A stretch of DNA of 64,000 bases from Bradymonadia bacterium (GCA_046290225.1 JBKAGE010000037.1:288001-352000), one strand, 5' to 3'; counted from the first letter of the stretch, positions 5,672 through 22,769 are shown. Program-made: numbers and translations. The notes: a model not told the origin generated them from the sequence alone.

Positions 5672-5832
5672 GCTGTGGCTCCTGGCTCTGGGGGGCATGA
5701 CTCAAAGGCTATGAGGCCTGATATGCCCTACACATTCATGATTTTAAAGGGCGCTCCTCACGACCAAACCAACTCATGGCTGACCCATCATTGGCCGATG
5801 TCTGTCATGAGGTGATGGATCGAGGTCGTTTG

Positions 5833-8800
5833 ATGAACCCCCAGACGCACGCACAAGACAGCGCCCAGTGGCGTGAAGGCGATCACATTGATGGTCGCTA
5901 CTTGCTCCACAAAACCTTGGGGGCTGGCACCGGCGGCACAGTATACCTCGCCACCGATCTCCAGCTGGGCACCGAGGTGGCGCTGAAACTGGTGCCCCGC
6001 AGTGAAGGCGGGCTCGGGGAAGAGTTCCTGCTCGCCCGCAGCCTCCGGCACCCCTTCATCACCTCAGTGTTCGACATCGGTCAGGCCTCATCTGAGCACG
6101 ACTACTTCACCATGGCCCCGGTTCAGGGGGGTGATCTCGCTTCAGTGAAGGATCAAATCGGCGTCGAAGGGGTGATTCAGGTGGCCGCAGACTGCCTGCA
6201 GGCCCTGGCTCATGTGCACAGCCGCGGGTTGATTCACGGTGATCTCAAACCCGACAACATCCTGGTGGCCCTCGACGGCCCTCGACCACGGCCTCAGCTG
6301 ATCGACTTCGGCCTCGCCCACGCCCGTGGTGAGCATGCCCTGCGAGGCACCCCAGCGTACATGGCCCCTGAGCTGCTCGGTGGCCATGCGCCAGATGCAC
6401 TCTCTGATCAATACGCCCTCGGTGTGAGCATTTACGAAGCCCTCTCCGGCGCGAACCCGTTCCTCGCCTCCACGGTCTCCGAGACCCTCGAGCGCCATCG
6501 GGCATATACCCCCGAGGCGTTGTCCGAGATCGGCCAGGGTCTTGCTGATGTGCTCGAGCGCATGATCAAGAAGAACCCTGATGCTCGATACCCCGACGTC
6601 CAGGCAGCATTGCACGCGCTGCAGGACGCGATGCCCTCTGTGAAAACCACAGTGGACACCCAGCTCATGACACGGCCGGTGTTGGGGCCCTTCACGGGGC
6701 GGGAAAGCGTCCTCAACACTCTCATCGACAATCTGTACTGGGACCGACCTCTCGAAGTGGAGCTGATCCTGGGCCTGTCGGGGAGCGGCCGCAGTCGCTT
6801 GCTCGAGGCGCTGATGATCAAGGCGCGCCTCATGGGGTTCCGAGTGATCTCACCGGGGCCTGCTCTCCTCGACTCTCTCCGCTCACAGCTCGCGCTCTAT
6901 CTGAACGATGAAGAGAACACCCTCTCCGACCAGATGAGAGATCCTGAGGAGATCGCCCATCACATCGGCACCCTCGCCGAGCACCAGTCGGTGTTGTTGC
7001 TCATCGACGATCTCGATCATTGTGCCGAAGCAGAGCAGGTGATCCTGGCAGAGGCGCTCTCTCATCTGACCGACGATGCGCCGGTGTACGTGGTGGCGAC
7101 GGCCCACCTCGACGAGCAGGTCACCTTGTTGCGCAGGATCGAAGGTGGCGTACCCTGCGAGCCCCAAATTTTGCACCCGCTGACCTTGGAGGCGTTCTCC
7201 AGAGTGGTGACGGGCACCCTGGGGCAACTCGACCCTGATGGTCGACTCACGGCGATTTATCACGAAGCCGCAGGTGGCTGGCCAGGCCGCCTGGAGACGC
7301 TCGTGAGCCACCACATCGACACCGGCGCGCTCACTTGGCGAGAAGGCAGCTGGCGCGCCTCACCTGATGCTGGCCTGCAAGATCCGGCGAAGCTGATCCG
7401 TGAAGCGCTTGCCCATGTACCCGCACCGGTACAAGAGCAGCCCACGAGGGTGTTGGATCATCACGGCCGTGGCCACGAGACTCTGCTCGCCACAGCAGCC
7501 CTGCTCGGTGATCGCTTCAACCGTACGGATCTGGCTGCGCTCGTCGGGCTCGCGGAGTGCCGCTCCGGGCTCAAGGCCCTCATCAAGTCGGGGGTGTTCA
7601 ACAAACACCACGACCACATCCGCTTCGAAGATCACCGCTTGCGAGATTACCTGCTCCAGCAAATGGGTGAAGAGGCCCGACAGATGGGGCACCGCCGGGT
7701 GGTCTCCTGGTTGCTGCAGAGTCGCCCTGACGACCACCGTGCCCTGGCCGCTCAGCTCGCAGGGGCGGGTGATCTCGGTGCAGCCCGCAGGGCGATGCTG
7801 AAGGCCATCGACGAGAGTACGCAACCCCTCGAACGCGCGGAGATGCACCGCTGGCTCCTGGCCCAGGGCAGCGATCCGACCACGCATCACGAGGGTGCTG
7901 GGGACGCAGAGTCCGAGGGTGGCCGCCTAGCAACGGCCCAAGCACACTACGCTCAGGCTCGACAGTTCGCCGAAGATGACACCACTCGACGTCGACTCGA
8001 CCGAAAGTCGGGCTGGGCTCTGAGCGACGAGGGGCGCTATGCAGAAGCTCAGCCTCTCCTGAGCCGTGCCCTCGAGCTGTGTGATACAGGCACCGCGCAT
8101 CAAAGCGAGCGCGGTGAGATCTGCTTCGCCCTGGGCTGGACGGTGATGATGCTCGGCGACTATGCCGAGGCCCGGCGCCTGTATCAGGCAGGCCTCGAGC
8201 CAGGCACCCAGGCGCTCAACCCCGACACCGCGGCGCGCCTCAAACGCCTGGAAGGTACGATCGCCTGGCACACGGCCCAGGGCAACGCCGAGCAGGCCTT
8301 CAACGAGGCCATCGATCTCGCCCGGGCAGCAGAAGACAAGTCCATCGAAGCCGACTGCCTCATGGGGCTGGCGAGCGCCCTCATCAAAGGCCGAGGGGCG
8401 TTGGAGAAAGCCATCGAGCATCTCGAGCTCGCCGCCCGGCTCAACCGCGAGCTGGGCCGCAGTGGCCAGGAGGGCAAGTGCTGCAACAACCTCGGGATCG
8501 TCTACTACACCGTAGGGCGCTGGTCCGAAGCCGGCATGTCCTGGCAACGCTTCAGGGACATCTGCGCCCTCACCCAGAATCGCAACGACCAGGCTTTGGC
8601 GTGTAACAACCTCGGCTTCCTCTACAAAGATCGCGGAGAATTTGAGCGTGCGGCGGCGATCCTCGACGAGGGTCGCCTCATCGCCGAGCAGGCCAACTTC
8701 TCCATGGGGCGCATGCTGCTCCTCGGCAACCTCGGTGAGGTGCGCACCCAGCTGGGGCAATACGTCGACGCCCGCACCGCGCTGAAGCAGGCCCTCACCC

Positions 8801-10476
8801 TCGCAGAATCCATGGGCAATGCCGACGAGGCCCTCGAGCTGCGTAGGCGGCTCGCCTCTCTCGAATGGGCAGAAGGGCGCACAGAGGCCGCACAACAACG
8901 CATCACCGAAACCCTCGCCGAGGCCCGCAACCGGGGCTCGGCCATCGAAGAAGGGCACTTGCTGCGCTTGCAGAGTCGCCTCTGGGCTCAAACGGGCAAG
9001 ACCAACGACGCCATCGGCGCGTTGCTCATGGCGCGCCGCCGCCTGGAAGACGGCGGCGCCGAGCTGGAAGCCGCCCGAGCCACCATCGAGTGGGCTCAAC
9101 TCAGCGGGCAGCTGCACCCCGATCATTTGATCGAAGATCTCGAGGTGGCCCGAGCGGTCGGCACCCGCCTGGGTACGCCCGACGTCATCGAGGGCGCCAG
9201 CGAGGTGATCCTCGACATCAAGCGCTCCAAGACTGCCATGGCCGACACGCAGCTGGCCATCCTGGCCCGCTCACTGGGGCGCGAGCTCGATCTGGACACC
9301 CTCCTGGGCAAGGTGGCCGACGCAGCCATCGAACTTACGGAAGGCGAGCGCTGCCTCGTGGTGCTCTACGAGCGGGGCGATGTCCTGCGCGTACACACCG
9401 CCCGATGGAATGGCGGTGAGGGAGAGCAGACCAACGCCCTTCAAATCAGCCGCAGCGTCGCCGACCGGGTCTTCAAAGAAGGTCGAGCCCTCGTGGTGGC
9501 CGATGTGCTCGGTGACTCCCACATGCAGGCCCAAGCGAGCATCGCCGCCCTGGGTCTGCGCTCGATCTTGTGCGCGCCGTTGACCTCTGCAGAGGGCCCG
9601 GTGGGGATCCTGTATGTCGACAGTCGCCAGCACGAGCACACGCGCTTCACCGAGAGCGCGCCGGTCCTCGAGCTCCTGGCCCGTCAGGCCGGTGAGGCGG
9701 TCCGCAACGCTCAGCTCTTCGAGGGGGAGCGACATCGCCGCAGGTTGATCAGCACCCTGGCCCACGACTTCCGCACTCCTCTGGCGGCGACAGACAGCGC
9801 CTTGGAGTTCATGGCCGCCGAGGTCGATGATCCGGAGCTGCAACAGATGATGGCCAGCTGTCGCAGTCAGCTGCAGCACCTGCGCCGCCTCAGCGACGAG
9901 ATCGTACAGCTCGAGCGCGTCAACCAGGGACGCATCACCGTGCGCCCCTTCCCCTTCGAGGCGGACGACCTCCTCCACAGCTACGCTGATTCGCTGCGCC
10001 CACTGGCCCGGCAACACAATGCGACGATCACCGTGGAGGCCATGAAGGGCCTGCCCGAAGTCATGGTGGATCCCGATCGCCTGTTCCAGGTGATGAGCAA
10101 CCTCGTGGGCAACGCCATCAAGGGCCTCGTCGACGGCGGCAACATCATCATTCGCGCCACCCTCACGGATACCTCAGGCCCTCAAAAGCAGCCTCAGTTT
10201 CTCGGCATGGGCATCGGCATTCAGGCCACACGTCCTCAGAGCTGGCTGAAGATTCAGATCAGCGACGACGGCTCGGGCATCGATCCCAAGATCCTCGACG
10301 AGAGCCTCGGTGACCGGGACGAGACCACCCCCTCTCCCCGAGGGCGCACCTTCAAGAGCGAGGGTCTGGGGCTCTCCATCGCGCGGGAGCTGGTTCAGCG
10401 TCACGGCGGGCGGCTCTGGCCAGAGCGATCCGACGAAACGGGCACCACGCTGGCCTTCACTCTGCCTGTAGCCTGA
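5833..10476 (+). CDS. Multidomain Ser/Thr kinase - STAND/AAA ATPase - TPR - GAF - histidine kinase
   Basis: Kinase motifs VALK, HGDLKPDN, DFG and GTPAYMAPE. P-loop GLSGSGRS with LLIDD. TPR NNLG repeats, GAF SILCAPL, H-box AHDFRTPL, and NLVGNAIK, DDGSGI, GLGLSI. Start is uncertain (5776-5833). Confidence 0.92.
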   Translation: MNPQTHAQDSAQWREGDHIDGRYLLHKTLGAGTGGTVYLATDLQLGTEVALKLVPRSEGGLGEEFLLARSLRHPFITSVFDIGQASSEHDYFTMAPVQGGDLASVKDQIGVEGVIQVAADCLQALAHVHSRGLIHGDLKPDNILVALDGPRPRPQLIDFGLAHARGEHALRGTPAYMAPELLGGHAPDALSDQYALGVSIYEALSGANPFLASTVSETLERHRAYTPEALSEIGQGLADVLERMIKKNPDARYPDVQAALHALQDAMPSVKTTVDTQLMTRPVLGPFTGRESVLNTLIDNLYWDRPLEVELILGLSGSGRSRLLEALMIKARLMGFRVISPGPALLDSLRSQLALYLNDEENTLSDQMRDPEEIAHHIGTLAEHQSVLLLIDDLDHCAEAEQVILAEALSHLTDDAPVYVVATAHLDEQVTLLRRIEGGVPCEPQILHPLTLEAFSRVVTGTLGQLDPDGRLTAIYHEAAGGWPGRLETLVSHHIDTGALTWREGSWRASPDAGLQDPAKLIREALAHVPAPVQEQPTRVLDHHGRGHETLLATAALLGDRFNRTDLAALVGLAECRSGLKALIKSGVFNKHHDHIRFEDHRLRDYLLQQMGEEARQMGHRRVVSWLLQSRPDDHRALAAQLAGAGDLGAARRAMLKAIDESTQPLERAEMHRWLLAQGSDPTTHHEGAGDAESEGGRLATAQAHYAQARQFAEDDTTRRRLDRKSGWALSDEGRYAEAQPLLSRALELCDTGTAHQSERGEICFALGWTVMMLGDYAEARRLYQAGLEPGTQALNPDTAARLKRLEGTIAWHTAQGNAEQAFNEAIDLARAAEDKSIEADCLMGLASALIKGRGALEKAIEHLELAARLNRELGRSGQEGKCCNNLGIVYYTVGRWSEAGMSWQRFRDICALTQNRNDQALACNNLGFLYKDRGEFERAAAILDEGRLIAEQANFSMGRMLLLGNLGEVRTQLGQYVDARTALKQALTLAESMGNADEALELRRRLASLEWAEGRTEAAQQRITETLAEARNRGSAIEEGHLLRLQSRLWAQTGKTNDAIGALLMARRRLEDGGAELEAARATIEWAQLSGQLHPDHLIEDLEVARAVGTRLGTPDVIEGASEVILDIKRSKTAMADTQLAILARSLGRELDLDTLLGKVADAAIELTEGERCLVVLYERGDVLRVHTARWNGGEGEQTNALQISRSVADRVFKEGRALVVADVLGDSHMQAQASIAALGLRSILCAPLTSAEGPVGILYVDSRQHEHTRFTESAPVLELLARQAGEAVRNAQLFEGERHRRRLISTLAHDFRTPLAATDSALEFMAAEVDDPELQQMMASCRSQLQHLRRLSDEIVQLERVNQGRITVRPFPFEADDLLHSYADSLRPLARQHNATITVEAMKGLPEVMVDPDRLFQVMSNLVGNAIKGLVDGGNIIIRATLTDTSGPQKQPQFLGMGIGIQATRPQSWLKIQISDDGSGIDPKILDESLGDRDETTPSPRGRTFKSEGLGLSIARELVQRHGGRLWPERSDETGTTLAFTLPVA

Positions 10477-13981: not shown

Positions 13982-14638
13982 TCAGTCGATCTCGGGCTCG
14001 GGGCGCAGAAAACCCCACAGCGCGCCCGCGAGGCCACAGGCCACGATGGGGATCAACGTGTGCCACACCATGACGTGACCCGCAGACTCGGCGATGCAGT
14101 GGGTGCTCACCGGTACGAGGCCGAGGAAGCCGGCGCCGAGGCCGAGCAGCAGGCCCGTGGGGGCGTGTCGCCTCAGCACCTTTCGCCCGGCGACGAGGGT
14201 GGTGGCGAGGATGGCCGTAGAGGTGAGGGCACCCCCCTTGAGGCACGAGAAGCCCATGGCCCAGAACTGATCACCGAGGCCCACGTGACTCTGAAAGTCA
14301 GACAATGTGAGCAGGATGATGACGCCGCCGAGGGCAGCGAACAGCAACAACGGCTTGAGACGCCGACCTGCTGGCAACACCAGTCCGAAGGCCAGACCGA
14401 AGAGGGTGAGCCCCACGACCAGCAACACGGCAGAGGTGATCCAGGTGCGGGGTGGGATGGTGGGCGAGAGCCCAAAACCCTGGGCGAGGCCGGCAACGAT
14501 GGCGAGGGCGACGATGGACGACACCGCGCCGAGGTTCCGACGCTTGCGGGCGAGGGCGGCCATGTCTTGAGCCACCATGTCCCGCAGCGCCTGCGGCGGC
14601 AGTAGCTCCTGCTTGTCGCTGTGATGCTCAGGCAACAT
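13982..14638 (-). CDS. NrsF/DUF1109-type multi-TM anti-sigma factor
   Basis: About six TM helices with conserved Cys, HC and HVMVWH motifs; lies directly downstream of an ECF sigma factor. Confidence 0.8.
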   Translation of the reverse strand: MLPEHHSDKQELLPPQALRDMVAQDMAALARKRRNLGAVSSIVALAIVAGLAQGFGLSPTIPPRTWITSAVLLVVGLTLFGLAFGLVLPAGRRLKPLLLFAALGGVIILLTLSDFQSHVGLGDQFWAMGFSCLKGGALTSTAILATTLVAGRKVLRRHAPTGLLLGLGAGFLGLVPVSTHCIAESAGHVMVWHTLIPIVACGLAGALWGFLRPEPEID

Positions 14639-14641
14639 GGT

Positions 14642-15217
14642 TCATTCCCTGCCCCGCTGCAGCATGCCTGCAAGCCGGGCCCTCAAACGATTGTACCCCC
14701 GGTGGGCTCTGACCCGGGCGGCGCCTTCTTTGATGCCCAGTGTAGCGGCAACTTCTGCAAGTGGCCGCCCCTCGAGCTTGTGCATGGCCACCACGGCGCG
14801 CTGCCCTTCTGGCAGCTCGTTGATGGCCTGCTTCAGCGCCTCGATCAACTCCGTGGGGGTCTCCTCTTCTTCGGGGGCGGTCTGCATTTCTGGCAGCTCG
14901 CCCTCTCGGGTCAGCACATCTTTCCGGCTGCCCCTCTTGCGCAAAGCGTCGATGGACAGTCGCCGGGCGATGGTGAGCACCCAGGGGCCCACCGGGGCAC
15001 CTGGCCGATATCGGTCACGGGCCTTGTGTACTCTGAGGAACGTCTGCTGCGTCAGATCTTCAGCAAGGGTGCGATCCCCCACCCACCTGATTTGACACCG
15101 CAGGACCACCGGCGAGAGCACACGGTAGACCTCGTCGAACGCTCGGGCGTCACCATCAGCATAACGCCCCATGGCGTCGATGAGCTGGCTCTCATCCCGG
15201 GTTTTCGAAGTGCTCAT
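14642..15217 (-). CDS. ECF RNA polymerase sigma factor
   Basis: Motifs GDARAFDEVY, AEDLTQQTFL, WVLTIARR and LPEGQR...EVAATLG...RAHRG. Confidence 0.95.
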   Translation of the reverse strand: MSTSKTRDESQLIDAMGRYADGDARAFDEVYRVLSPVVLRCQIRWVGDRTLAEDLTQQTFLRVHKARDRYRPGAPVGPWVLTIARRLSIDALRKRGSRKDVLTREGELPEMQTAPEEEETPTELIEALKQAINELPEGQRAVVAMHKLEGRPLAEVAATLGIKEGAARVRAHRGYNRLRARLAGMLQRGRE

Positions 15218-15396: not shown

Positions 15397-15933
15397 TCAG
15401 GGCTGCACAGGGGCGGGTGCTGGTGGGGGCGGCGCGTCTTCGTCTCCACCGCCAGGGGGTGCCTCTTCCGGTACACCTGCGTCCGGCGGCAGGGGTTTCT
15501 TGTAGCCGTACAAGGTGTTGGCCTTGCTCGCCGGCGTGAGGGTGACCGAGACGTCATCGTCCCGAAACGTGTAGATGCGGGTGTTCACGGGGATGTACCC
15601 CCCCGCCACGACCTTGACATCGATGGGCCCGGAATCGCGCTGGCGCTTCAGCGTGAGGGGGGTGACACCCAGCTTCTCCTTGCCCCAGTACACCGAGGCC
15701 CGCACCTTGGGCCGAGTGGTCAGCCTCAAGGTCACCGTCTTGGGCGCCGCCTTGCGCTTCGCCTTGGCCTTTTGCTCCTGATCGAGCGTGCGCTGGGCCT
15801 GCTTCTGCATTTCTTTTTGGGCGTCGAGCTTGCGCTCGGCATCTTTCACCACCGCAGGCTTGTCCTGGGCAGAGGCCAGAGCACAGACCCCGATCACTGT
15901 GAGGGCGGCCGCGAGGGCCAGCGCCGATCTCAT
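15397..15933 (-). CDS. Secreted PEGA-like domain protein
   Basis: Signal peptide; LTTRP..ASV...LGVTPL...GY pattern; 4-nt overlap with the upstream gene. Confidence 0.75.
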   Translation of the reverse strand: MRSALALAAALTVIGVCALASAQDKPAVVKDAERKLDAQKEMQKQAQRTLDQEQKAKAKRKAAPKTVTLRLTTRPKVRASVYWGKEKLGVTPLTLKRQRDSGPIDVKVVAGGYIPVNTRIYTFRDDDVSVTLTPASKANTLYGYKKPLPPDAGVPEEAPPGGGDEDAPPPPAPAPVQP

Positions 15934-18062
15934 CCTGCTTTGCCTTTCTCGATCTGGGGCAGGGCCCCGGTCTCACCGCTCTCAGCGTCACCCTCTTCCT
16001 CGTCAGCGGGGTAGAGCGTGTTGGGCTTGGGCACGAGGCCCTCGATGGGCTTCTTGTGCCGGCCGACGATGTTGCCCTCGTTCACCATGATGGGCATGGG
16101 CGGCTCGAGGATGTACCGGTAACCCCGCGAGGGGATGCGCATCTCGTAGACCTCTTCGCCTTTGAGGAACTGTCGGTGGTAGTTCACCATCTGCTCCCCC
16201 TTCACCTTCATGTGCCGGTGCTGAAGGATGAAGCCGTAGAGCCGCACGGCGAGGTGGTTGAGCAGGCGGTGGCAGCCGTGTGAGTAGCCCCGGCGGCTGT
16301 AGATCGACATGTAATCAGACGAGCCGTGGGCCCGGATGCCCTGATCCCAGTCGGCCTTGCCGTTGCGGCCGGGCATGACGAAGTAGCCCGCCACCAGACC
16401 GTAGGCGGACTCGTAGCCAGGGCCGGTCTCGCTGTAGTTCACGATCCCGCTGCCCTTACCGTTGATCCACTTGCGACGCACCAAGCCGCGGATCGGCGTG
16501 GTCACTGGCGGGATCCAGGCGGGTCCCGCCACCACCTTGCGCATCACCCGGGGGCCCACCTCGGACTTCTTGTACTTGTAGTACTCATAGCCATTCTTGG
16601 CCTGCTCCGCCCGCCAGCCGCCGATGGTGGAAGGCCACCGCGCCAACGGGATCTTCTGGCCTTCCCACTTCACGTGTAGCCAGAGCTTGGGCTTGCGCTT
16701 GCGGCTGGGGTAGCTCCACTTGTCGTTCTCGTCCCAGGGCGGGTCGTAGGTGACGTCGCCCCGATCGATGAACATGTGCAGATCCATGTGCTCGCTGTAG
16801 TACGGCGGCTTCTCGGGGAACTTCACCCCGAAGCGCAGCCACTGGAGATCCTGGTCGCTGTACTGCTCGAAGAGCTCGGCGAGCTGCTCCGGAGTCTCGA
16901 CACCGATTTGCTGCTTGGCCGCGGCGGTGAAGTCGGCGACGAGGTTGGGCACCTCGTGGGTCTCACCGTCAGGCGTCTTGTACGTGCGCTTCTTCTTGCC
17001 CACGTGCACCGAGCCGTCTTCCAAAATGCCCGTGGCGGCCACGACGCGCTCGGTGAGGGCGCGCTCGAAAGACAGGAAGTTCCCCTCGGCAGGGTTCATG
17101 GCCATGCGCTGCATGGTCTCGGCCTTGAGGGCGGGATACTCGTAGAGCATGTGCTTCTGCTGGAACTTCTTGAGCCCCAGCTTGAAGCCTCGATCCCACT
17201 TGCCCCGCTTGTGCTTGTAACGCTTGGGCAACATGCCCTCGCACTTGAGGCGCAGCTCGGCCTGCTGGAACGCCTTCCGGTTCACGGCGTTGCTGGTGTA
17301 GAGCCGCACGTTCTCCGCGGACTCCGGGTTGGCCTCGATGAGGGCCTCCCAGGTGTCGACCCCGGCCTCCTTCTTGAGCTTGAGCAGCTTCTTCTCAAGC
17401 TTGGCGGCCTTCCGGCGCCGGCGGCGATCCCGGCGCCCGTTGGGCTCGTAGATGGCATCGGTCTGTTTCAACAGATCGAAATCTACGGTGGCCATGCACT
17501 TGCTTTCTTCGTCTTTCACGAAGCGCTTGCGCACGACGCCGAAGCTCGGCGGGATCCCATAAGGCTCGAGGTAGTTGTGCTCCCCAGGTTCAAGGGGCTG
17601 ACCATCAGCGTCGCCGGTGTCGTTGGCGAGGCCGAGGAACACCGAGCGATAGCGGTGCACCTGCAACACGCCCTCCTCGTCTTCCTGATCGACGAAGATG
17701 TACGGGGTCCAGTCGTTGCGGAAGTCCACGAGGGTGTACCCCGCGGCGACAGCGGCAGAGGCCTCCACCACTCGGCGCTTGCCGTCGACGACGATCACGG
17801 CGCGCTCTTCTGGAGGCAGATCGTCCCGGGGGCGCAGCGGATCAGGCGGCGGTTGTGATGGCTTCTCTTTCACCATCTTCGCCGGCGTGTCGGCACCCTT
17901 CAGGGTGTCTTGCTGAGCTGAGCCCTCAGACGCTTTTTTCTGCTCAGAGGCCTTCTGCGTCGCAGCGGGTGTATCCCCCTTGCCGTCTTTCTTGGAGGTC
18001 TCGGGGCCACCACACGCGGTGATGGTCAACATCAGACAGGACAAGCTCAGTAGACGGTTCAT
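15930..18062 (-). CDS. Large L,D-transpeptidase (YkuD) family lipoprotein with PG-binding-like segment
   Basis: Lipobox ITAC; motifs GPAWIPP and IRAHGS...SHGCHRL (Hxx14-17SHGC); LKKFQQKH PG-binding-like motif. Confidence 0.85.
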   Translation of the reverse strand: MNRLLSLSCLMLTITACGGPETSKKDGKGDTPAATQKASEQKKASEGSAQQDTLKGADTPAKMVKEKPSQPPPDPLRPRDDLPPEERAVIVVDGKRRVVEASAAVAAGYTLVDFRNDWTPYIFVDQEDEEGVLQVHRYRSVFLGLANDTGDADGQPLEPGEHNYLEPYGIPPSFGVVRKRFVKDEESKCMATVDFDLLKQTDAIYEPNGRRDRRRRRKAAKLEKKLLKLKKEAGVDTWEALIEANPESAENVRLYTSNAVNRKAFQQAELRLKCEGMLPKRYKHKRGKWDRGFKLGLKKFQQKHMLYEYPALKAETMQRMAMNPAEGNFLSFERALTERVVAATGILEDGSVHVGKKKRTYKTPDGETHEVPNLVADFTAAAKQQIGVETPEQLAELFEQYSDQDLQWLRFGVKFPEKPPYYSEHMDLHMFIDRGDVTYDPPWDENDKWSYPSRKRKPKLWLHVKWEGQKIPLARWPSTIGGWRAEQAKNGYEYYKYKKSEVGPRVMRKVVAGPAWIPPVTTPIRGLVRRKWINGKGSGIVNYSETGPGYESAYGLVAGYFVMPGRNGKADWDQGIRAHGSSDYMSIYSRRGYSHGCHRLLNHLAVRLYGFILQHRHMKVKGEQMVNYHRQFLKGEEVYEMRIPSRGYRYILEPPMPIMVNEGNIVGRHKKPIEGLVPKPNTLYPADEEEGDAESGETGALPQIEKGKAG

Positions 18063-18170
18063 GGGCTTCCTCAGCGTCGGCTCGACAATGTGCGAAGATC
18101 CGGAGATGTTCTAGATGACCCCCTGGTTTTCACCTGGGGGCTTCCAAATCGAGAAACAGGATCGCGCATC

Positions 18171-20462
18171 GTGGCCGAGTCTACAAAGACATCAATGGAG
18201 CGCTATGCCGTCGAGGCGTCTCGGGGTCAAGGGTCTTGTGCCCGGATCATCGACGCACACGACTGTCTCCTTGACCGACCAGTGACACTCTGGCGGCCCG
18301 CGGTGGGGTGTACGGACGAGGCCCGCGAAAGGTTCACCGCACGCCTCGAAGCCTGGGCGCGCATCGCCAGCCCTCACGTACAACCGGTGTATTTGGTGAC
18401 CCACGATCACGAGGGCCCCTTTGCTGTGACGCCGCGCCCGATCTCGGGCCTGCGTGTAGATGCCTGGGCCCTCAAGGTGGACCAGCGGCAGCCCAGCGCA
18501 GCTGATCATGTCAAGCTGCGCATGATCGCCTGGCTGGTGGAGGCGGTCTCCCGAGGGCACACCCTCGGACTGGCCCATGGCGACCTGCTGAGCCCACACC
18601 TGACCATCATCTCTGATGGCACACCACGCCTCACGGCCTTCGGTGTACGTGAAGGTGATGCCGCCGACGACGTACGCGCCCTCGGCGCCCTGGCCTTGTC
18701 TCTGCTCACGGGAGAATCACCGTCTACAGTGCTCCATGGCACCCACGGCACCTGGCTCGACGCCACTGAGTCTCTCGATTTGCCTCTCGAGGCGCTGTTC
18801 TTGATCGAAAAGATGACCGAGGCCGAGCCCGAGAGCAGGCCTACTGCAGCAGCCCTCGCCCCTCAGTGGGCCGATCTCGCCGGCTCACTGGTGCCCACCC
18901 CCCGTCGCTGGTCCGCTCCTTCAGGGCCCACGGCTCACCAAGTGCACATCGTCGACGCTGCCTTGCAGCACGGTCCGATCACCGATCGACCCTCAGCGAC
19001 GATGTTCGAGCAGTGCCATCAAGCAGCCTCGTCCATCCTCGAGCAGCGCCCGGAGCTCCGCGATCACGTCGAGGCGGTCTATCTGGGCACCATGGGCCTC
19101 TCTCAGGGCAGCCCCCTGCACGCCACCCACATCCCCAACGCCTTGCGGGCCCGGCTGGGGCTCACCGGTATCCGCGGCGATGGCTACCACACCCACATGA
19201 GCACCTCCGAGTCCGGCGCCGTCGCGCTGCTCAAGGCGGTGCGCGACCTGCAATCGGGCCGCCGGACCACGGTGCTCGTAGTGGCCGCCGAGGCCATGTT
19301 CAGTGGTGATCCCGAGCACCGCCGAGCAGAGCGGGCGGAGATCAGCGCCTGGATCAAATCGGTGGTCGATCCCGGCGAGGGGGCCTACGACCTGAGCATG
19401 CTCAACATCGGTGATCTGATCATGGATCACCTGATCTGGGCCTCGGGTCTGCCGCCTGAGGACTGGCGTGAGGTGCTTCGAGATCTGACTCTGGGCAAAT
19501 ACGCTCGGGCGAGTGTGTATCCACAGGCGATGGAGGCCGCCAAAGCCCGTCGTCGCGGCCCGATCACCCCCGAGACGTACGCAGATGCTCGACAGAACCG
19601 GCCCGTGACGCCCCACTACCGCCTGCACGACGTCTGCCCCAACGCCAACGGCGCCACAGCGCTGGTGCTCAGCACAGATCCGGCCCTCGCCTCTGGGGTG
19701 CAGATTCTGGGCATGGGCGAAGGCCACACCAAGGTGGCTCTCACGGAGCGGACTGACCCCCTCGGCCGCCCGGCAGCAATGCGTCGCGCCCTGCGGCAGC
19801 TGTGCCACGACGCCGAGGTCGATCCTGCGCTGCTGCTCGACGCGGGTCACACCGTGGGCATCTTCCACGACGCCTTCCCCGCCATCGAGGCCTCGGCCCT
19901 GGCAGAGCTGGATCCCACAGCATCATGGTCCTGGCGCCTCGATCGTCTGAAGGCAGGCTGGACGAACGCCCTCGGCGGCCTCTCGGCGGCGGGCCACGCC
20001 CTGGGCAACTCGGGGCTCTTGCAGATCGCTCAAGCGTTCCACCTGCTCACGGACGATCCACGCTACCTCGAGGCGTTGCCAGAGGTCGCTCAGGGGCGCA
20101 GCTTCGTGCTGACGACGAGCGTGGGCGCGGCATTGACGAATGTGGTGAGTACGCTGGTGGGCCGCCTCGATGATGGCGCACAGACGCAACTGTCACGTGC
20201 GCGCGCGGCCTACGACAAGGGGACGATCAACGCACGCTGGCGACGCCCTGCCGGGGATCCGATGGTGGACGACCTGCTCGCCGCGTGCGGCCCTGGGGAA
20301 GGGATCGTGATCGCACGCACCCACGTACCCCACGATGATCGCTGGGTGCACCTGGTGCGTACGACTCAGGAGACGGTGCTGGCGATTTGTGACGCAGGAG
20401 TGCTGCCCTGCGGAGCACGGGTGAAAGTGTTCGAAGGGACGCCCCGACGCATCTCGCTCTGA
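18171..20462 (+). CDS. Pseudokinase - thiolase-like (SCP2/Ltp2 type, Cys absent) - OB-fold fusion protein
   Basis: Kinase remnants RY..GQG, HGDL, AFG, DVRALG and P..RP. Thiolase motifs VLVVAAEAM, CPNANGATALVL, HDAF and NALGGLSAAGHALGNSG. Start is GTG 18171 or ATG 18195. Confidence 0.75.
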   Translation: MAESTKTSMERYAVEASRGQGSCARIIDAHDCLLDRPVTLWRPAVGCTDEARERFTARLEAWARIASPHVQPVYLVTHDHEGPFAVTPRPISGLRVDAWALKVDQRQPSAADHVKLRMIAWLVEAVSRGHTLGLAHGDLLSPHLTIISDGTPRLTAFGVREGDAADDVRALGALALSLLTGESPSTVLHGTHGTWLDATESLDLPLEALFLIEKMTEAEPESRPTAAALAPQWADLAGSLVPTPRRWSAPSGPTAHQVHIVDAALQHGPITDRPSATMFEQCHQAASSILEQRPELRDHVEAVYLGTMGLSQGSPLHATHIPNALRARLGLTGIRGDGYHTHMSTSESGAVALLKAVRDLQSGRRTTVLVVAAEAMFSGDPEHRRAERAEISAWIKSVVDPGEGAYDLSMLNIGDLIMDHLIWASGLPPEDWREVLRDLTLGKYARASVYPQAMEAAKARRRGPITPETYADARQNRPVTPHYRLHDVCPNANGATALVLSTDPALASGVQILGMGEGHTKVALTERTDPLGRPAAMRRALRQLCHDAEVDPALLLDAGHTVGIFHDAFPAIEASALAELDPTASWSWRLDRLKAGWTNALGGLSAAGHALGNSGLLQIAQAFHLLTDDPRYLEALPEVAQGRSFVLTTSVGAALTNVVSTLVGRLDDGAQTQLSRARAAYDKGTINARWRRPAGDPMVDDLLAACGPGEGIVIARTHVPHDDRWVHLVRTTQETVLAICDAGVLPCGARVKVFEGTPRRISL

Positions 20463-20484: not shown

Positions 20485-21234
20485 TCAGAACCCGATCTTG
20501 CGCATCACGAATCGCGGCAGGCGCTTGATCACGAACATCACCCACCGCCACATCCCTGGGGTGTAGATCAACGGCTTGCCTTTGGTGATCGCCTTGATCA
20601 CGTCGTTGGCCACCTGCTCCGGCTCCCCTGCGAAGGGGGGCGGTGAGAGCCCCGCCGTCATCCCCGTCTTCACGAAGCCCGGCTTCACGCAAATCGTGTT
20701 CAGCCCATCAGCGCGGTGCTTGTGGTCGAGAGACTCGAGGTAGTGGCTCAGCCCCGCCTTGGTGCTGCCGTACAGCGCCACGGGCTTGCGACCGCGATCA
20801 CCGGCCACCGAGGAGAACACACACAATGTACCCCCACCGGGGTTGCTCAACAGATGGCGGCGCGCCAGCTCGCAAAACTCCACCGTGCCCGTGAAGTTCA
20901 CGAAGAGCATCTTGCGGCGCAGCGCCTCGTCGGCTTCGAGGGCGTCCTGGGTGCCGAACATGGCTGCCGTGATCACCACCGTGTCGAGACCCCCCATCTG
21001 CTCGATGGCGGACTCGAGGGCCGGGGCCAGGGTGTCGAAGTCATTGAGATCACAGTGAGCCGTGAACACGTCCCCGTCGCCGGCTCGGGCCCGGAGATCA
21101 GTGGCGCTCTTCTCCAGCTCTTCGGGGCGGCGACCCAGAATGCACAGCGTGTCGCCACGGGCGGCCATCTTGCGGGAGAGCGCGCGGCCCATGCCCCCCG
21201 TGGCGCCGAGGAACGCCACCTTCAGCCCGCTCAT
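20485..21234 (-). CDS. SDR oxidoreductase, DprE2-like
   Basis: Motifs GATGGMG, SSVAGDRGR, YGSTK and VKPGFVKTGMT; translationally coupled to the DprE1-like gene. Confidence 0.9.
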   Translation of the reverse strand: MSGLKVAFLGATGGMGRALSRKMAARGDTLCILGRRPEELEKSATDLRARAGDGDVFTAHCDLNDFDTLAPALESAIEQMGGLDTVVITAAMFGTQDALEADEALRRKMLFVNFTGTVEFCELARRHLLSNPGGGTLCVFSSVAGDRGRKPVALYGSTKAGLSHYLESLDHKHRADGLNTICVKPGFVKTGMTAGLSPPPFAGEPEQVANDVIKAITKGKPLIYTPGMWRWVMFVIKRLPRFVMRKIGF

Positions 21235-22586
21235 GAGACCTCCTCGTCGATCAAGCGTCGGGCCATGGCGCTGCTCAGGCGGCCTTCAGGATCCCAGGTG
21301 CGGCGGATCGCGTTGAACTGCTTCAGGTTCGGGTACATGGCTTGGAAATGCTCGCGGCGGGTGAAGGCGTCTTTCGCCAGATAGATGCGACCGTCGTGCT
21401 TGAGCACGTACTCGTTCAGGGCGTCCACGAGGGCCTGAGTCTTTGCCCGCACTGGGATGTCGAGGGCGATCGACGTACCCCGCTTGGGGAACGACATCAG
21501 CCCTTCACCTGCGGGGCCGCAGTCTTTGAACACCGTCACGAACGACGCCCCGCCCATCTTCTGGAACAGCTCGAGGAACTCCCGGAACAGCTTCGCGTCG
21601 GTGGGCATCACGCATTGATACTGGGTGAAGCCCTTGGGGCCATACCCCTTGTTCCACTTCGAGATGGCGTCGAGGGGGTAGAAGTAGCCCTGTGGGTGGG
21701 CGATGTGTTTGACGTGCTTGCTGCCGTGCTTGGTGTACCAGGCGGTGTTGGCCAGCCCCAGGGTGAAGTTGCTCACTAGGCCGTGGGGCATGGTGAAGGG
21801 CACGGCGATCTCGAACTTCTCCGGGGGCATGGCGGGTTTGCCGGCGGCCTCTTCTTTCGTGGCCCATCGGCCGGCCATCACGATGCCCCGGCCGAGCTTC
21901 TTGCCCTTGCTCGAAGTGTCGATCCAGGCCACCGTCATGGGCCACTCTTTGCTCGTCGTGCCCAGACGCTCAAGGACCTGCTCGATGTCGGGCAAGCGCT
22001 CGCTCTCTTCGTAGATCCAGGGGCTGCTGATGGCCTCGAGCTGGAACTCCACCTCGAGGATGTGGCCCGTGAGGCCCATGCCGCCGAGGGTGGCCACGAA
22101 GAGCTCAGGCTCGCTCTCCCGCGTCACCTCGAGGATGCGCCCGTCGGCCACCCGCATCCGCAGCGCGCTCACGTGCCGACCGAAGGTGCCCGCCACGTGG
22201 TGGTTCTTTCCGTGTACGTCACTGGCCACCATGCCGCCGAGGGTGACGAACTGCGTGCCCGTGGTCACCGGCGTGAACCAGCCATGGGGCATGGTGATGC
22301 GGTTGAGGGTGTGGAGCGACAGACCCGCCTCCGCCCGGAAACGCCCTGTCTCCGTGTTGAAGCACAGCACCCGATCGGCGAGGGGCGTGATCGCCACCAC
22401 GCCATCGCTCGATCCGGGCAGCGCTGCGTCGCCGTAGGCCCTGCCGAGGCCACGACAGAGGGTGGCGCCATCGGTGATGGCGGGCAGATTCTCAGATTCG
22501 AGGGCTGGAGCTTCTACCCGTGGGTAGCGGCCCCAGCCTTCCAGGATCTGAGCGGCGGGCTTCGGTGGGGTGGGCCGGCTGTTCAT
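21231..22586 (-). CDS. FAD-binding oxidoreductase, DprE1-like
   Basis: Motifs GWGR, RGLGRAYGD, GTQFVTLGG, DVHGKNHH, GGMGLTG, QYQ and GRIYLAKD. Confidence 0.92.
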   Translation of the reverse strand: MNSRPTPPKPAAQILEGWGRYPRVEAPALESENLPAITDGATLCRGLGRAYGDAALPGSSDGVVAITPLADRVLCFNTETGRFRAEAGLSLHTLNRITMPHGWFTPVTTGTQFVTLGGMVASDVHGKNHHVAGTFGRHVSALRMRVADGRILEVTRESEPELFVATLGGMGLTGHILEVEFQLEAISSPWIYEESERLPDIEQVLERLGTTSKEWPMTVAWIDTSSKGKKLGRGIVMAGRWATKEEAAGKPAMPPEKFEIAVPFTMPHGLVSNFTLGLANTAWYTKHGSKHVKHIAHPQGYFYPLDAISKWNKGYGPKGFTQYQCVMPTDAKLFREFLELFQKMGGASFVTVFKDCGPAGEGLMSFPKRGTSIALDIPVRAKTQALVDALNEYVLKHDGRIYLAKDAFTRREHFQAMYPNLKQFNAIRRTWDPEGRLSSAMARRLIDEEVS

Positions 22587-22769
22587 GGCGTGAATATGAC
22601 GATGGGGGGGGTCGAGTTCAAGCTTCAAGGTCTGGGTACAGGCCGCCGAAAGACCAGTGCGACACACCCCGTATCGGGGGATGATGACGACATCCTCTTG
22701 TAAAGCGTTGCATCTTCATCTATCCCCCCGCCATCAAAGTCGAAGCACAGGCCAGAGGCAGAGGAACAC

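Follow-up and report, generated by a model that had tools for sequence, protein, structure and literature searches.

A serine-containing clade of thiolase–OB-barrel proteins, mostly from Myxococcota, that carries a pseudokinase and other signalling modules

A 64,000-nucleotide stretch of DNA from a Bradymonadia bacterium (GCA_046290225.1 JBKAGE010000037.1:288001-352000, hereafter the window) encodes at 18171..20462, on the + strand, a 763-residue protein, P0001, in which a pseudokinase is followed by a thiolase-fold domain with serine at the nucleophile position (Ser-thiolase), a linker and an OB-like barrel, an architecture shared with its relative P0003. The protein belongs to a serine (Ser) clade, distributed mostly in Myxococcota, that is a real and previously undescribed variant of the thiolase superfamily. 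Homology and structure show its functional unit to be an old one-chain combination of an archaeal/SCP2-type thiolase and an OB barrel of putative DUF35 type. Signalling modules have been attached to this core repeatedly, and the family-wide pattern matters more than the pseudokinase fusion itself. While the thiolase–barrel fusion is already known from TLP1 (PMC3406046), the Ser clade and its repeated gain of signalling modules are apparently new, and the pattern suggests that an enzyme family not yet studied is connected to bacterial signalling or defence. Aldolases, a Friedel-Crafts acylase and DpsC show that the thiolase scaffold has taken on new functions on several occasions. A clade in which Ser-Asp/Glu chemistry is fixed and a DUF35-type barrel is built in would add another active-site type, and its single-chain core should lend itself readily to expression and assay. 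Standard annotation conceals the family, as neither P0001 nor the cyclase-like domain of some of its relatives has a Pfam match above threshold.

The thiolase-fold domain covers residues 254-666 (18930..20168, +). It matches the NCBIfam model PRK06064 (E 6.8e-13) and is predicted with a local distance difference test score (pLDDT) mostly above 90. In fold comparisons, the predicted model is closest to the P. furiosus thiolase 7yvy (Z 43.9, root-mean-square deviation (rmsd) 2.3, 353 aligned residues), followed by 4yzo (Z 42.5), PhlC (40.9), Sal (9myr, 37.1) and Ltp2 (6ok1, 36.5); Foldseek returns a thiolase-fold match at E 4e-21, and the best structural matches of the core are archaeal and SCP2-type thiolases. 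The register of the profile alignment sets the nucleophile elbow TSESG (19203..19217, +) over ACASG, so that the catalytic Cys is replaced by S346, followed by the clade-specific acid E347. The HDAF motif (19866..19877, +) aligns with the HDCF loop, which provides the acid/base Cys in SCP2-thiolases (PMC7682436), minus that Cys, and differs from both YDHF and YDCY. Two further catalytic elements complete the site, namely the GHA motif, of GHP type, with His609 (19992..20000, +) and the last catalytic loop TTSVG with S650 (20112..20126, +). The alignments thus show that two catalytic cysteines have been lost from the core and two histidines kept. A first-pass annotation of the DNA had recognized the thiolase fold, the retained HDAF and GHALG motifs and the TSESG elbow, all of which the profile alignment and the 7yvy match bear out. 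Its description of the domain as cysteine-less holds at the catalytic positions, not overall, since C282, C489 and C545 remain; it was likewise right that the nucleophilic Cys is absent, and overlooked that Ser, then Asp/Glu, is fixed at the site.

Although many of the 129 aligned clade members are just ~30-35% identical to P0001, their active site is near-invariant. Residue S346 is kept in 126/129 rows, an Asp or Glu at 347 in 126/129, H566 and D567 each in 128/129, H609 in 127/129 and S650 in 123/129, while the third position of HDxF is Ala in 126 rows and the position five residues after His609 is Ser (S614) in 126. Once the sister clade is counted, Ser occupies the nucleophile site in 153 of 160 rows. 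The conserved active site of the thiolase-OB core therefore reads Ser-Asp/Glu, HDAF, GHA and TSVG.

The family was collected from 1.84 billion representative sequences (70 matches at E <=1e-10, 134 at 1e-3), from GTDB (85 confirmed loci, 80 of them retained, mostly labelled Myxococcota or Deltaproteobacteria) and from metagenomes (161 loci, 80 of them retained). A FastTree phylogeny of 186 domains, rooted on a Cys thiolase and restricted to non-metagenomic domains of at least 300 residues, contains some proteins twice, so that its rows are dependent. It leads from Cys thiolases through forms with Ser and a fused barrel to a derived clade of 139 rows (support 1.0), within which lies the 129-row clade with Asp/Glu after the Ser (support 0.995). 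Among 301 genomes of the phylum, the derived family is present in 15 and a more thiolase-like match in 22; in the 17 of these 22 that were examined, HDAF, GHP and a barrel-like tail are found in 17/17 and a SETASS motif in 15/17. Within the source genome's own family, 10/24 genomes match the core, and the fully readable matches have the long cyclase-clade form. The source genome itself (G000) holds the core in the kinase-fused form only, next to a separate SCP2 thiolase that retains its Cys. A search for longer homologues, a weak one confined to 1989-5000 residues, found none. Literature searches, whose coverage excluded most subscription journals and bioRxiv supplements, found nothing on this Ser clade or on a thiolase joined to a kinase, cyclase, TIR or EAD domain, in keeping with the first-pass view that the architecture had no published description.

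The thiolase domain is continued by a helical linker (20169..20294, +), which occupies the possible place of the DUF35 zinc ribbon and has no CxxC, and by an OB-like beta-barrel of DUF35-OB or TLP1 C-terminal type (residues 709-763; 20295..20459, +), predicted with pLDDT above 90. The presence of this barrel is supported by the predicted model, in which residues 256-763 superpose on residues 5-506 of the TLP1 chain 4egv (397 aligned, rmsd 3.1). Its identity as a DUF35-OB domain is moderately supported. Compared by hhalign with the DUF35-like tails of the sister Ser-thiolases, the barrel profile scores P 43% and E 2.4e-4, and full-length profiles align at P 100% with the barrel collinear; sub-threshold PF01796 matches occur in 5/16 sister Ser-thiolases, and Atlas leads point to PF18313 at 0.83-0.85, under the 0.9 mark. 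Residues 709-763 have no Pfam or PDB-sequence match of their own, a PDB sequence search with the cyclase-clade tail gave nothing significant, and DUF35 chains were absent among the listed rows of the whole-model fold searches, which the thiolase domain dominated. A CxxC pair after the thiolase domain, as in a zinc ribbon, is found in 0/139 rows, and a PF01796 search of G000 (99% complete) gave no match. The DUF35-like OB fold proposed in the first-pass annotation thus stands as a barrel, with moderate support for its being a DUF35-OB domain, and lacks both a zinc ribbon and a library match of its own. The thiolase–barrel fusion is real, old and of known architecture.

The closest known systems in sequence and structure are the archaeal and SCP2 thiolases that work with a DUF35 partner (7YVY; M. 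thermolithotrophicus 6ESQ/6ET9; the Leishmania and zebrafish SCP2-thiolases), with which P0001 shares the HDxF and GHx loops and a barrel apparently of the partner's OB type, and from which it differs in its Ser nucleophile, the Ala of HDAF, the fusion of the barrel without a zinc ribbon and the added kinase-like domain. M. smegmatis TLP1 (4EGV, with a PF18313 C-terminal domain) likewise joins a Cys-less thiolase, a linker and a six-stranded barrel in one chain, but it is 18% identical to P0001, has no signalling modules described for it and carries YSCF and no thiolase fingerprints (PMC3406046), whereas the family keeps HDAF, GHA and Ser-Asp/Glu. The pairs Ltp2-ChsH2(DUF35) and Sal-Shy(DUF35) (6OK1, 9MYR) also combine a thiolase fold lacking the nucleophilic Cys with a DUF35 barrel; Ltp2 uses YDHF and a second Tyr, while Sal uses YDCY and has Gly at the nucleophile site (PMC12329534), where the family has Ser. 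As neither the Tyr base and acid of Ltp2, the Tyr-Cys pair of Sal/SLP (YDCY/YDCF) nor the YSCF of TLP1 is present in P0001, the protein lies outside all three families.

These comparisons bear directly on the first-pass proposal of a self-contained Ltp2/Sal-like retro-aldolase, for which the Cys-less thiolase fold, the fused DUF35-type barrel and the fold matches to 9myr and 6ok1 speak. The position of the catalytic Tyr is, however, His in 128/129 rows (H566) and the His/Cys position of the same loop is Ala, no conserved Tyr takes the place of His609, archaeal thiolases match better, the zinc ribbon is absent, and the neighbours scanned include no steroid or hydratase genes. The aldolase is accordingly disfavoured and appears highly improbable.

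A serine nucleophile in a thiolase fold has a precedent. DpsC, a KAS III-like enzyme, self-acylates through S118-H297-D302 (PMC12664062), and its likeness to P0001 is positional, a Ser nucleophile in a thiolase fold; it belongs to another branch of the superfamily, its Asp five residues after the His (a spacing taken, for DpsC and PhlC, from residue numbers) is Ser in P0001, and P0001 has no polyketide cluster. S. tokodaii ST0096 (4YZO, Z 42.5) has Ser at the same profile position but is a stand-alone 373-residue chain, with no function found in the literature examined, and it implies that natural Ser variants may, by alignment, extend beyond the P0001 clade. CurH (PMC11407993) was set aside as a comparator, being a Cys enzyme.

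The N-terminal domain, residues 9-240 (18195..18890, +), is a degenerate Hanks-type kinase. It matches StkP (phmmer E 2e-5), PknE (3.7e-4) and the NCBIfam PknB model (E 1.4e-5), as well as kinases in 23/40 related genomes at E <=1e-8, with a best value of 2.6e-16; a further search matched six kinase proteins. Pfam by itself is weak on this region (E 0.2). The homology extends across the N- and C-lobes, and the decay of the domain described in the first-pass annotation (VTLW, HGDLLSPH, AFG and no activation segment) is confirmed. In the beta3 motif VTLW (in RPVTLW; 18282..18293, +), Trp stands at the site of the ATP-anchoring Lys, as in P0003, and the alphaC Glu is replaced by Arg. The catalytic loop HGDLLSPH (18576..18599, +), in place of HRDxKxxN, keeps the Asp and has lost Lys and Asn, and AFG replaces DFG (18636..18644, +), with ~30 activation-segment residues missing before DDVRALG. 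Only the HRD Asp and the Gly-rich loop are left. Because the beta3 Lys, alphaC Glu, loop Lys and Asn, DFG Asp and activation segment are gone, phosphotransfer by this domain is very unlikely, judging from the motifs.

The fusion is genuine. P0003 has the same architecture and the same dead kinase at 56% identity and 99% coverage (thiolase 74%, barrel 48%, kinase 41%), which rules out an assembly chimera or a singleton, the two artefacts raised in the first-pass annotation. The pseudokinase form is rare, comprising two 90% clusters, of which that of P0003 has three members, and none of the public contigs aligned to the gene bridges the kinase–thiolase junction; a search for RNA data sets containing the gene listed none. 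In a comparison of close strains, 38 in-gene differences among those listed (27 more are unlisted) were classified on contigs of depth 2-6; among them, the thiolase, linker and OB segments show 24 synonymous against 5 replacement codons. These counts, together with the 74% against 41% identity to P0003, show purifying selection on the thiolase-OB core.

On the conserved thiolase-OB core, kinases are one kind of module among several that interchange, a point missed by the first-pass annotation. N-terminal kinases are intact in P0007, the sole kinase fusion with intact motifs, and dead in P0001 and P0003, and P0009 carries an N-terminal EAD5 (E 9e-9). Three kinase-like C-terminal tails are without the Asp of HRD and that of DFG (P0028, by a Pfam match; P0019, by a weak match to a profile of our own; P0023, by motifs only). 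A subclade of 96 rows has an extra domain predicted at pLDDT 92 with the class III nucleotide cyclase fold (CyaB, Z 14.6, rmsd 3.4, 160 aligned; Foldseek E 8e-6). It is detected in 82/96 rows, most of the 14 misses being shorter or cut sequences, and both metal-binding Asp are present in 9/54 aligned domains. In L076:11123-12421 and this subclade, where the cyclase-fold domain has no Pfam match, a ~100-residue helical insert appears to split the barrel after strand 1. Among 22 proteins scanned, a TIR domain is added in four (P0059, P0064, P0067 and P0073) and an EAD1-like domain in one (P0071, E 1.3e-4, below the cut-off). In a 39-row tree, the N-kinase, C-kinase and cyclase forms fall in separate, well-supported parts, which indicates that modules were gained independently more than once; for the three N-kinase rows, a possible common origin has a support of 56 in a quick tree search. 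The core has thus repeatedly gained signalling modules, most of them catalytically degenerate, and it is unexpected that a lipid-metabolism fold should repeatedly be joined to kinase, cyclase, TIR and EAD domains.

Several of these modules recall the EAD-linked MoxR-vWA/GAP1 ternary conflict systems, in which EADs serve effectors as adaptors and the typical cargo includes inactive kinases and cyclases (Kaur et al. 2020, PMC7159879), and which share inactive kinases, cyclases, TIR, EAD1 and EAD5 with the relatives of P0001. The family might accordingly supply effectors or decoys of multicellular-type conflict systems against phage or other invaders, as its EAD5, EAD1-like and TIR fusions, the TIR-fused member that stands head to head with another TIR gene and its patchy spread (15/301 genomes) would allow. 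Unlike those systems, no core operon was found near family genes, and the scanned neighbours, recurring or nearest, include no MoxR, vWA, VMAP, iSTAND or GAP1 family. The genes are usually single-copy in stable housekeeping synteny, only a few members carry an EAD or TIR fusion, PADLOC matches are confined to the kinase region, and EAD1 and EAD5 searches of G000 were blank, as were their controls. The text of Kaur et al. 2020 (PMC7159879), two of its supplements and the main text of the 2021 sequel do not mention a thiolase. A role in conflict therefore seems quite unlikely. At L068:8059-13048, the TIR of the fused member looks degenerate, and the head-to-head arrangement with the separate TIR gene is a possible homotypic pair.

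The explanation we prefer, held tentatively as plausible rather than probable, is that the core uses a serine to transfer or hydrolyse the acyl groups of acyl-CoA, with an exchangeable pseudo-enzyme module as its gate. In favour speak the near-invariant active site, the purifying selection on the core, the DpsC precedent, the degeneracy of most attached domains, and the abundant kinases and separate Cys-retaining thiolase of G000. With both thiolase Cys gone, the core is unlikely to carry out thiolysis or Claisen condensation in the ordinary way. The core would instead bind acyl-coenzyme A (acyl-CoA) and form acyl-O-Ser346, aided by His566, His609 and E347, and the acyl group would then be handed to water or an acceptor. 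Since most modules are catalytically dead, the core rather than the module would be the output, and the attached modules could serve as docking or allosteric inputs; in G000, with its 117 kinase matches, the pseudokinase might connect the enzyme with a kinase network more than 100 strong, a testable route from the large Myxococcota kinase networks to acyl-CoA chemistry. A broader and unlikely version makes the family the acyltransferase output of signalling or immunity in Myxococcota, which would respond by acylating a target or depleting acyl-CoA, with its interchangeable adaptors (pseudokinase, pseudo-cyclase, TIR, EAD1, EAD5) plugging it into phosphorylation, cyclic-nucleotide and conflict-system networks.

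Several observations weigh against this enzyme. The Asp five residues after the His in DpsC and PhlC is Ser in 126/129 clade rows, which makes E347 as the activator a guess; Cys-to-Ser replacement in PhlC (C88S) abolishes activity (PMC6392133), and TLP1, a Cys-less thiolase–barrel fusion, binds CoA and has no thiolase activity (PMC3406046). Many members (P0004-P0006, P0008, P0011-P0014) have the core without any signalling module, so that the kinase is dispensable for it, and no conserved operon or lipid operon was found near family genes across 80 genome loci and the scanned neighbours of further loci, so that the link to lipid metabolism suggested in the first-pass annotation stays a conjecture. 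The kinase region of P0001 is modelled poorly (pLDDT below 65, from an alignment with only three kinase-bearing rows). Among the listed strain differences it shows 2 synonymous against 4 replacement codons, and its replacement ratio differs from that of the core (Fisher p 0.027, for listed differences on low-depth contigs), as in a fast-evolving pseudokinase.

The PhlC and TLP1 results, the absence of both catalytic Cys and the intact kinase of P0007 would also suit a pseudo-thiolase sensor or scaffold, which binds acyl-CoA without turnover and controls the attached module through binding or dimerisation, the kinase, cyclase or TIR then acting itself (as in P0007) or through live partners. Such a scheme fits the usual behaviour of kinases, class III cyclases and TIR domains, for which dimerisation is the typical switch. 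A plain binder has, however, no obvious need of an invariant Ser, an acid and two His; being dead, most of the attached enzymes offer no direct output, and many members have no module to control; we hold the sensor to be rather unlikely. The fast evolution and low pLDDT of the kinase, in a genome so rich in kinases, could otherwise mark it as a decaying recombination relic without a role, a passenger on a core that works alone, and P0141, from the P0003 cluster, begins in its record at an internal Met and lacks the kinase. Yet P0001 and P0003 share frame, length, the Trp at the Lys site and the loss of the activation segment at 41% kinase identity, and the cyclase-like module is kept in 82/96 rows and has a confidently predicted fold, which leaves the passenger improbable.

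The gene itself is a single open frame from GTG at 18171 to TGA at 20462, and the unbroken three-part reading frame of the first-pass annotation is upheld. GTG at 18090 and ATG at 18195 are possible alternative starts, and 18171 is favoured because a close strain has ATG there; a promoter and terminator scan of 17950-18300 gave no match. Upstream, a divergent gene for a 710-residue lipoprotein-like protein (15930-18062, -) resembles YkuD L,D-transpeptidases only very weakly (E 0.46). Downstream, a flavin adenine dinucleotide-linked oxidase and short-chain dehydrogenase pair with Pfam matches (20485-22667, -), which we take to resemble DprE1/DprE2, converges on the gene, and P0001 is thus solitary, its neighbours being divergent on one side and convergent on the other.

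Elsewhere in the family, the recurring neighbours of the 80 genome loci (ABC transporter, major facilitator superfamily protein, electron transfer flavoprotein and antiporter) track lineage synteny, and the same holds for the sister-clade neighbours (SppA, alpha/beta-hydrolase and sigma factor). At L205-L221, sister Ser-thiolase-OB genes (~530 residues) stand head to head with or adjoin an SppA peptidase gene in 15/17 loci, with an alpha/beta-hydrolase close by in 14/17. A single basal core-only member (L032:4849-13851) lies in the same orientation within a methylerythritol phosphate (MEP) isoprenoid cluster, in the order ispG, dxr, unknown, ispDF, family gene, ispE and ispH with uppS on the opposite strand, on a contig labelled as an archaeal metagenome-assembled genome. 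MEP genes are unusual in an archaeon, and an isoprenoid link was set aside, as this case is alone and no relative turned up in 60 neighbouring genomes. Within the window, 5776-10476 (+) encodes a 1566-residue protein that joins an intact Ser/Thr kinase, an AAA/STAND-like ATPase, TPRs, a GAF domain and a histidine kinase, and 13982-15217 (-) encodes an extracytoplasmic function sigma factor followed by an NrsF-type anti-sigma factor.

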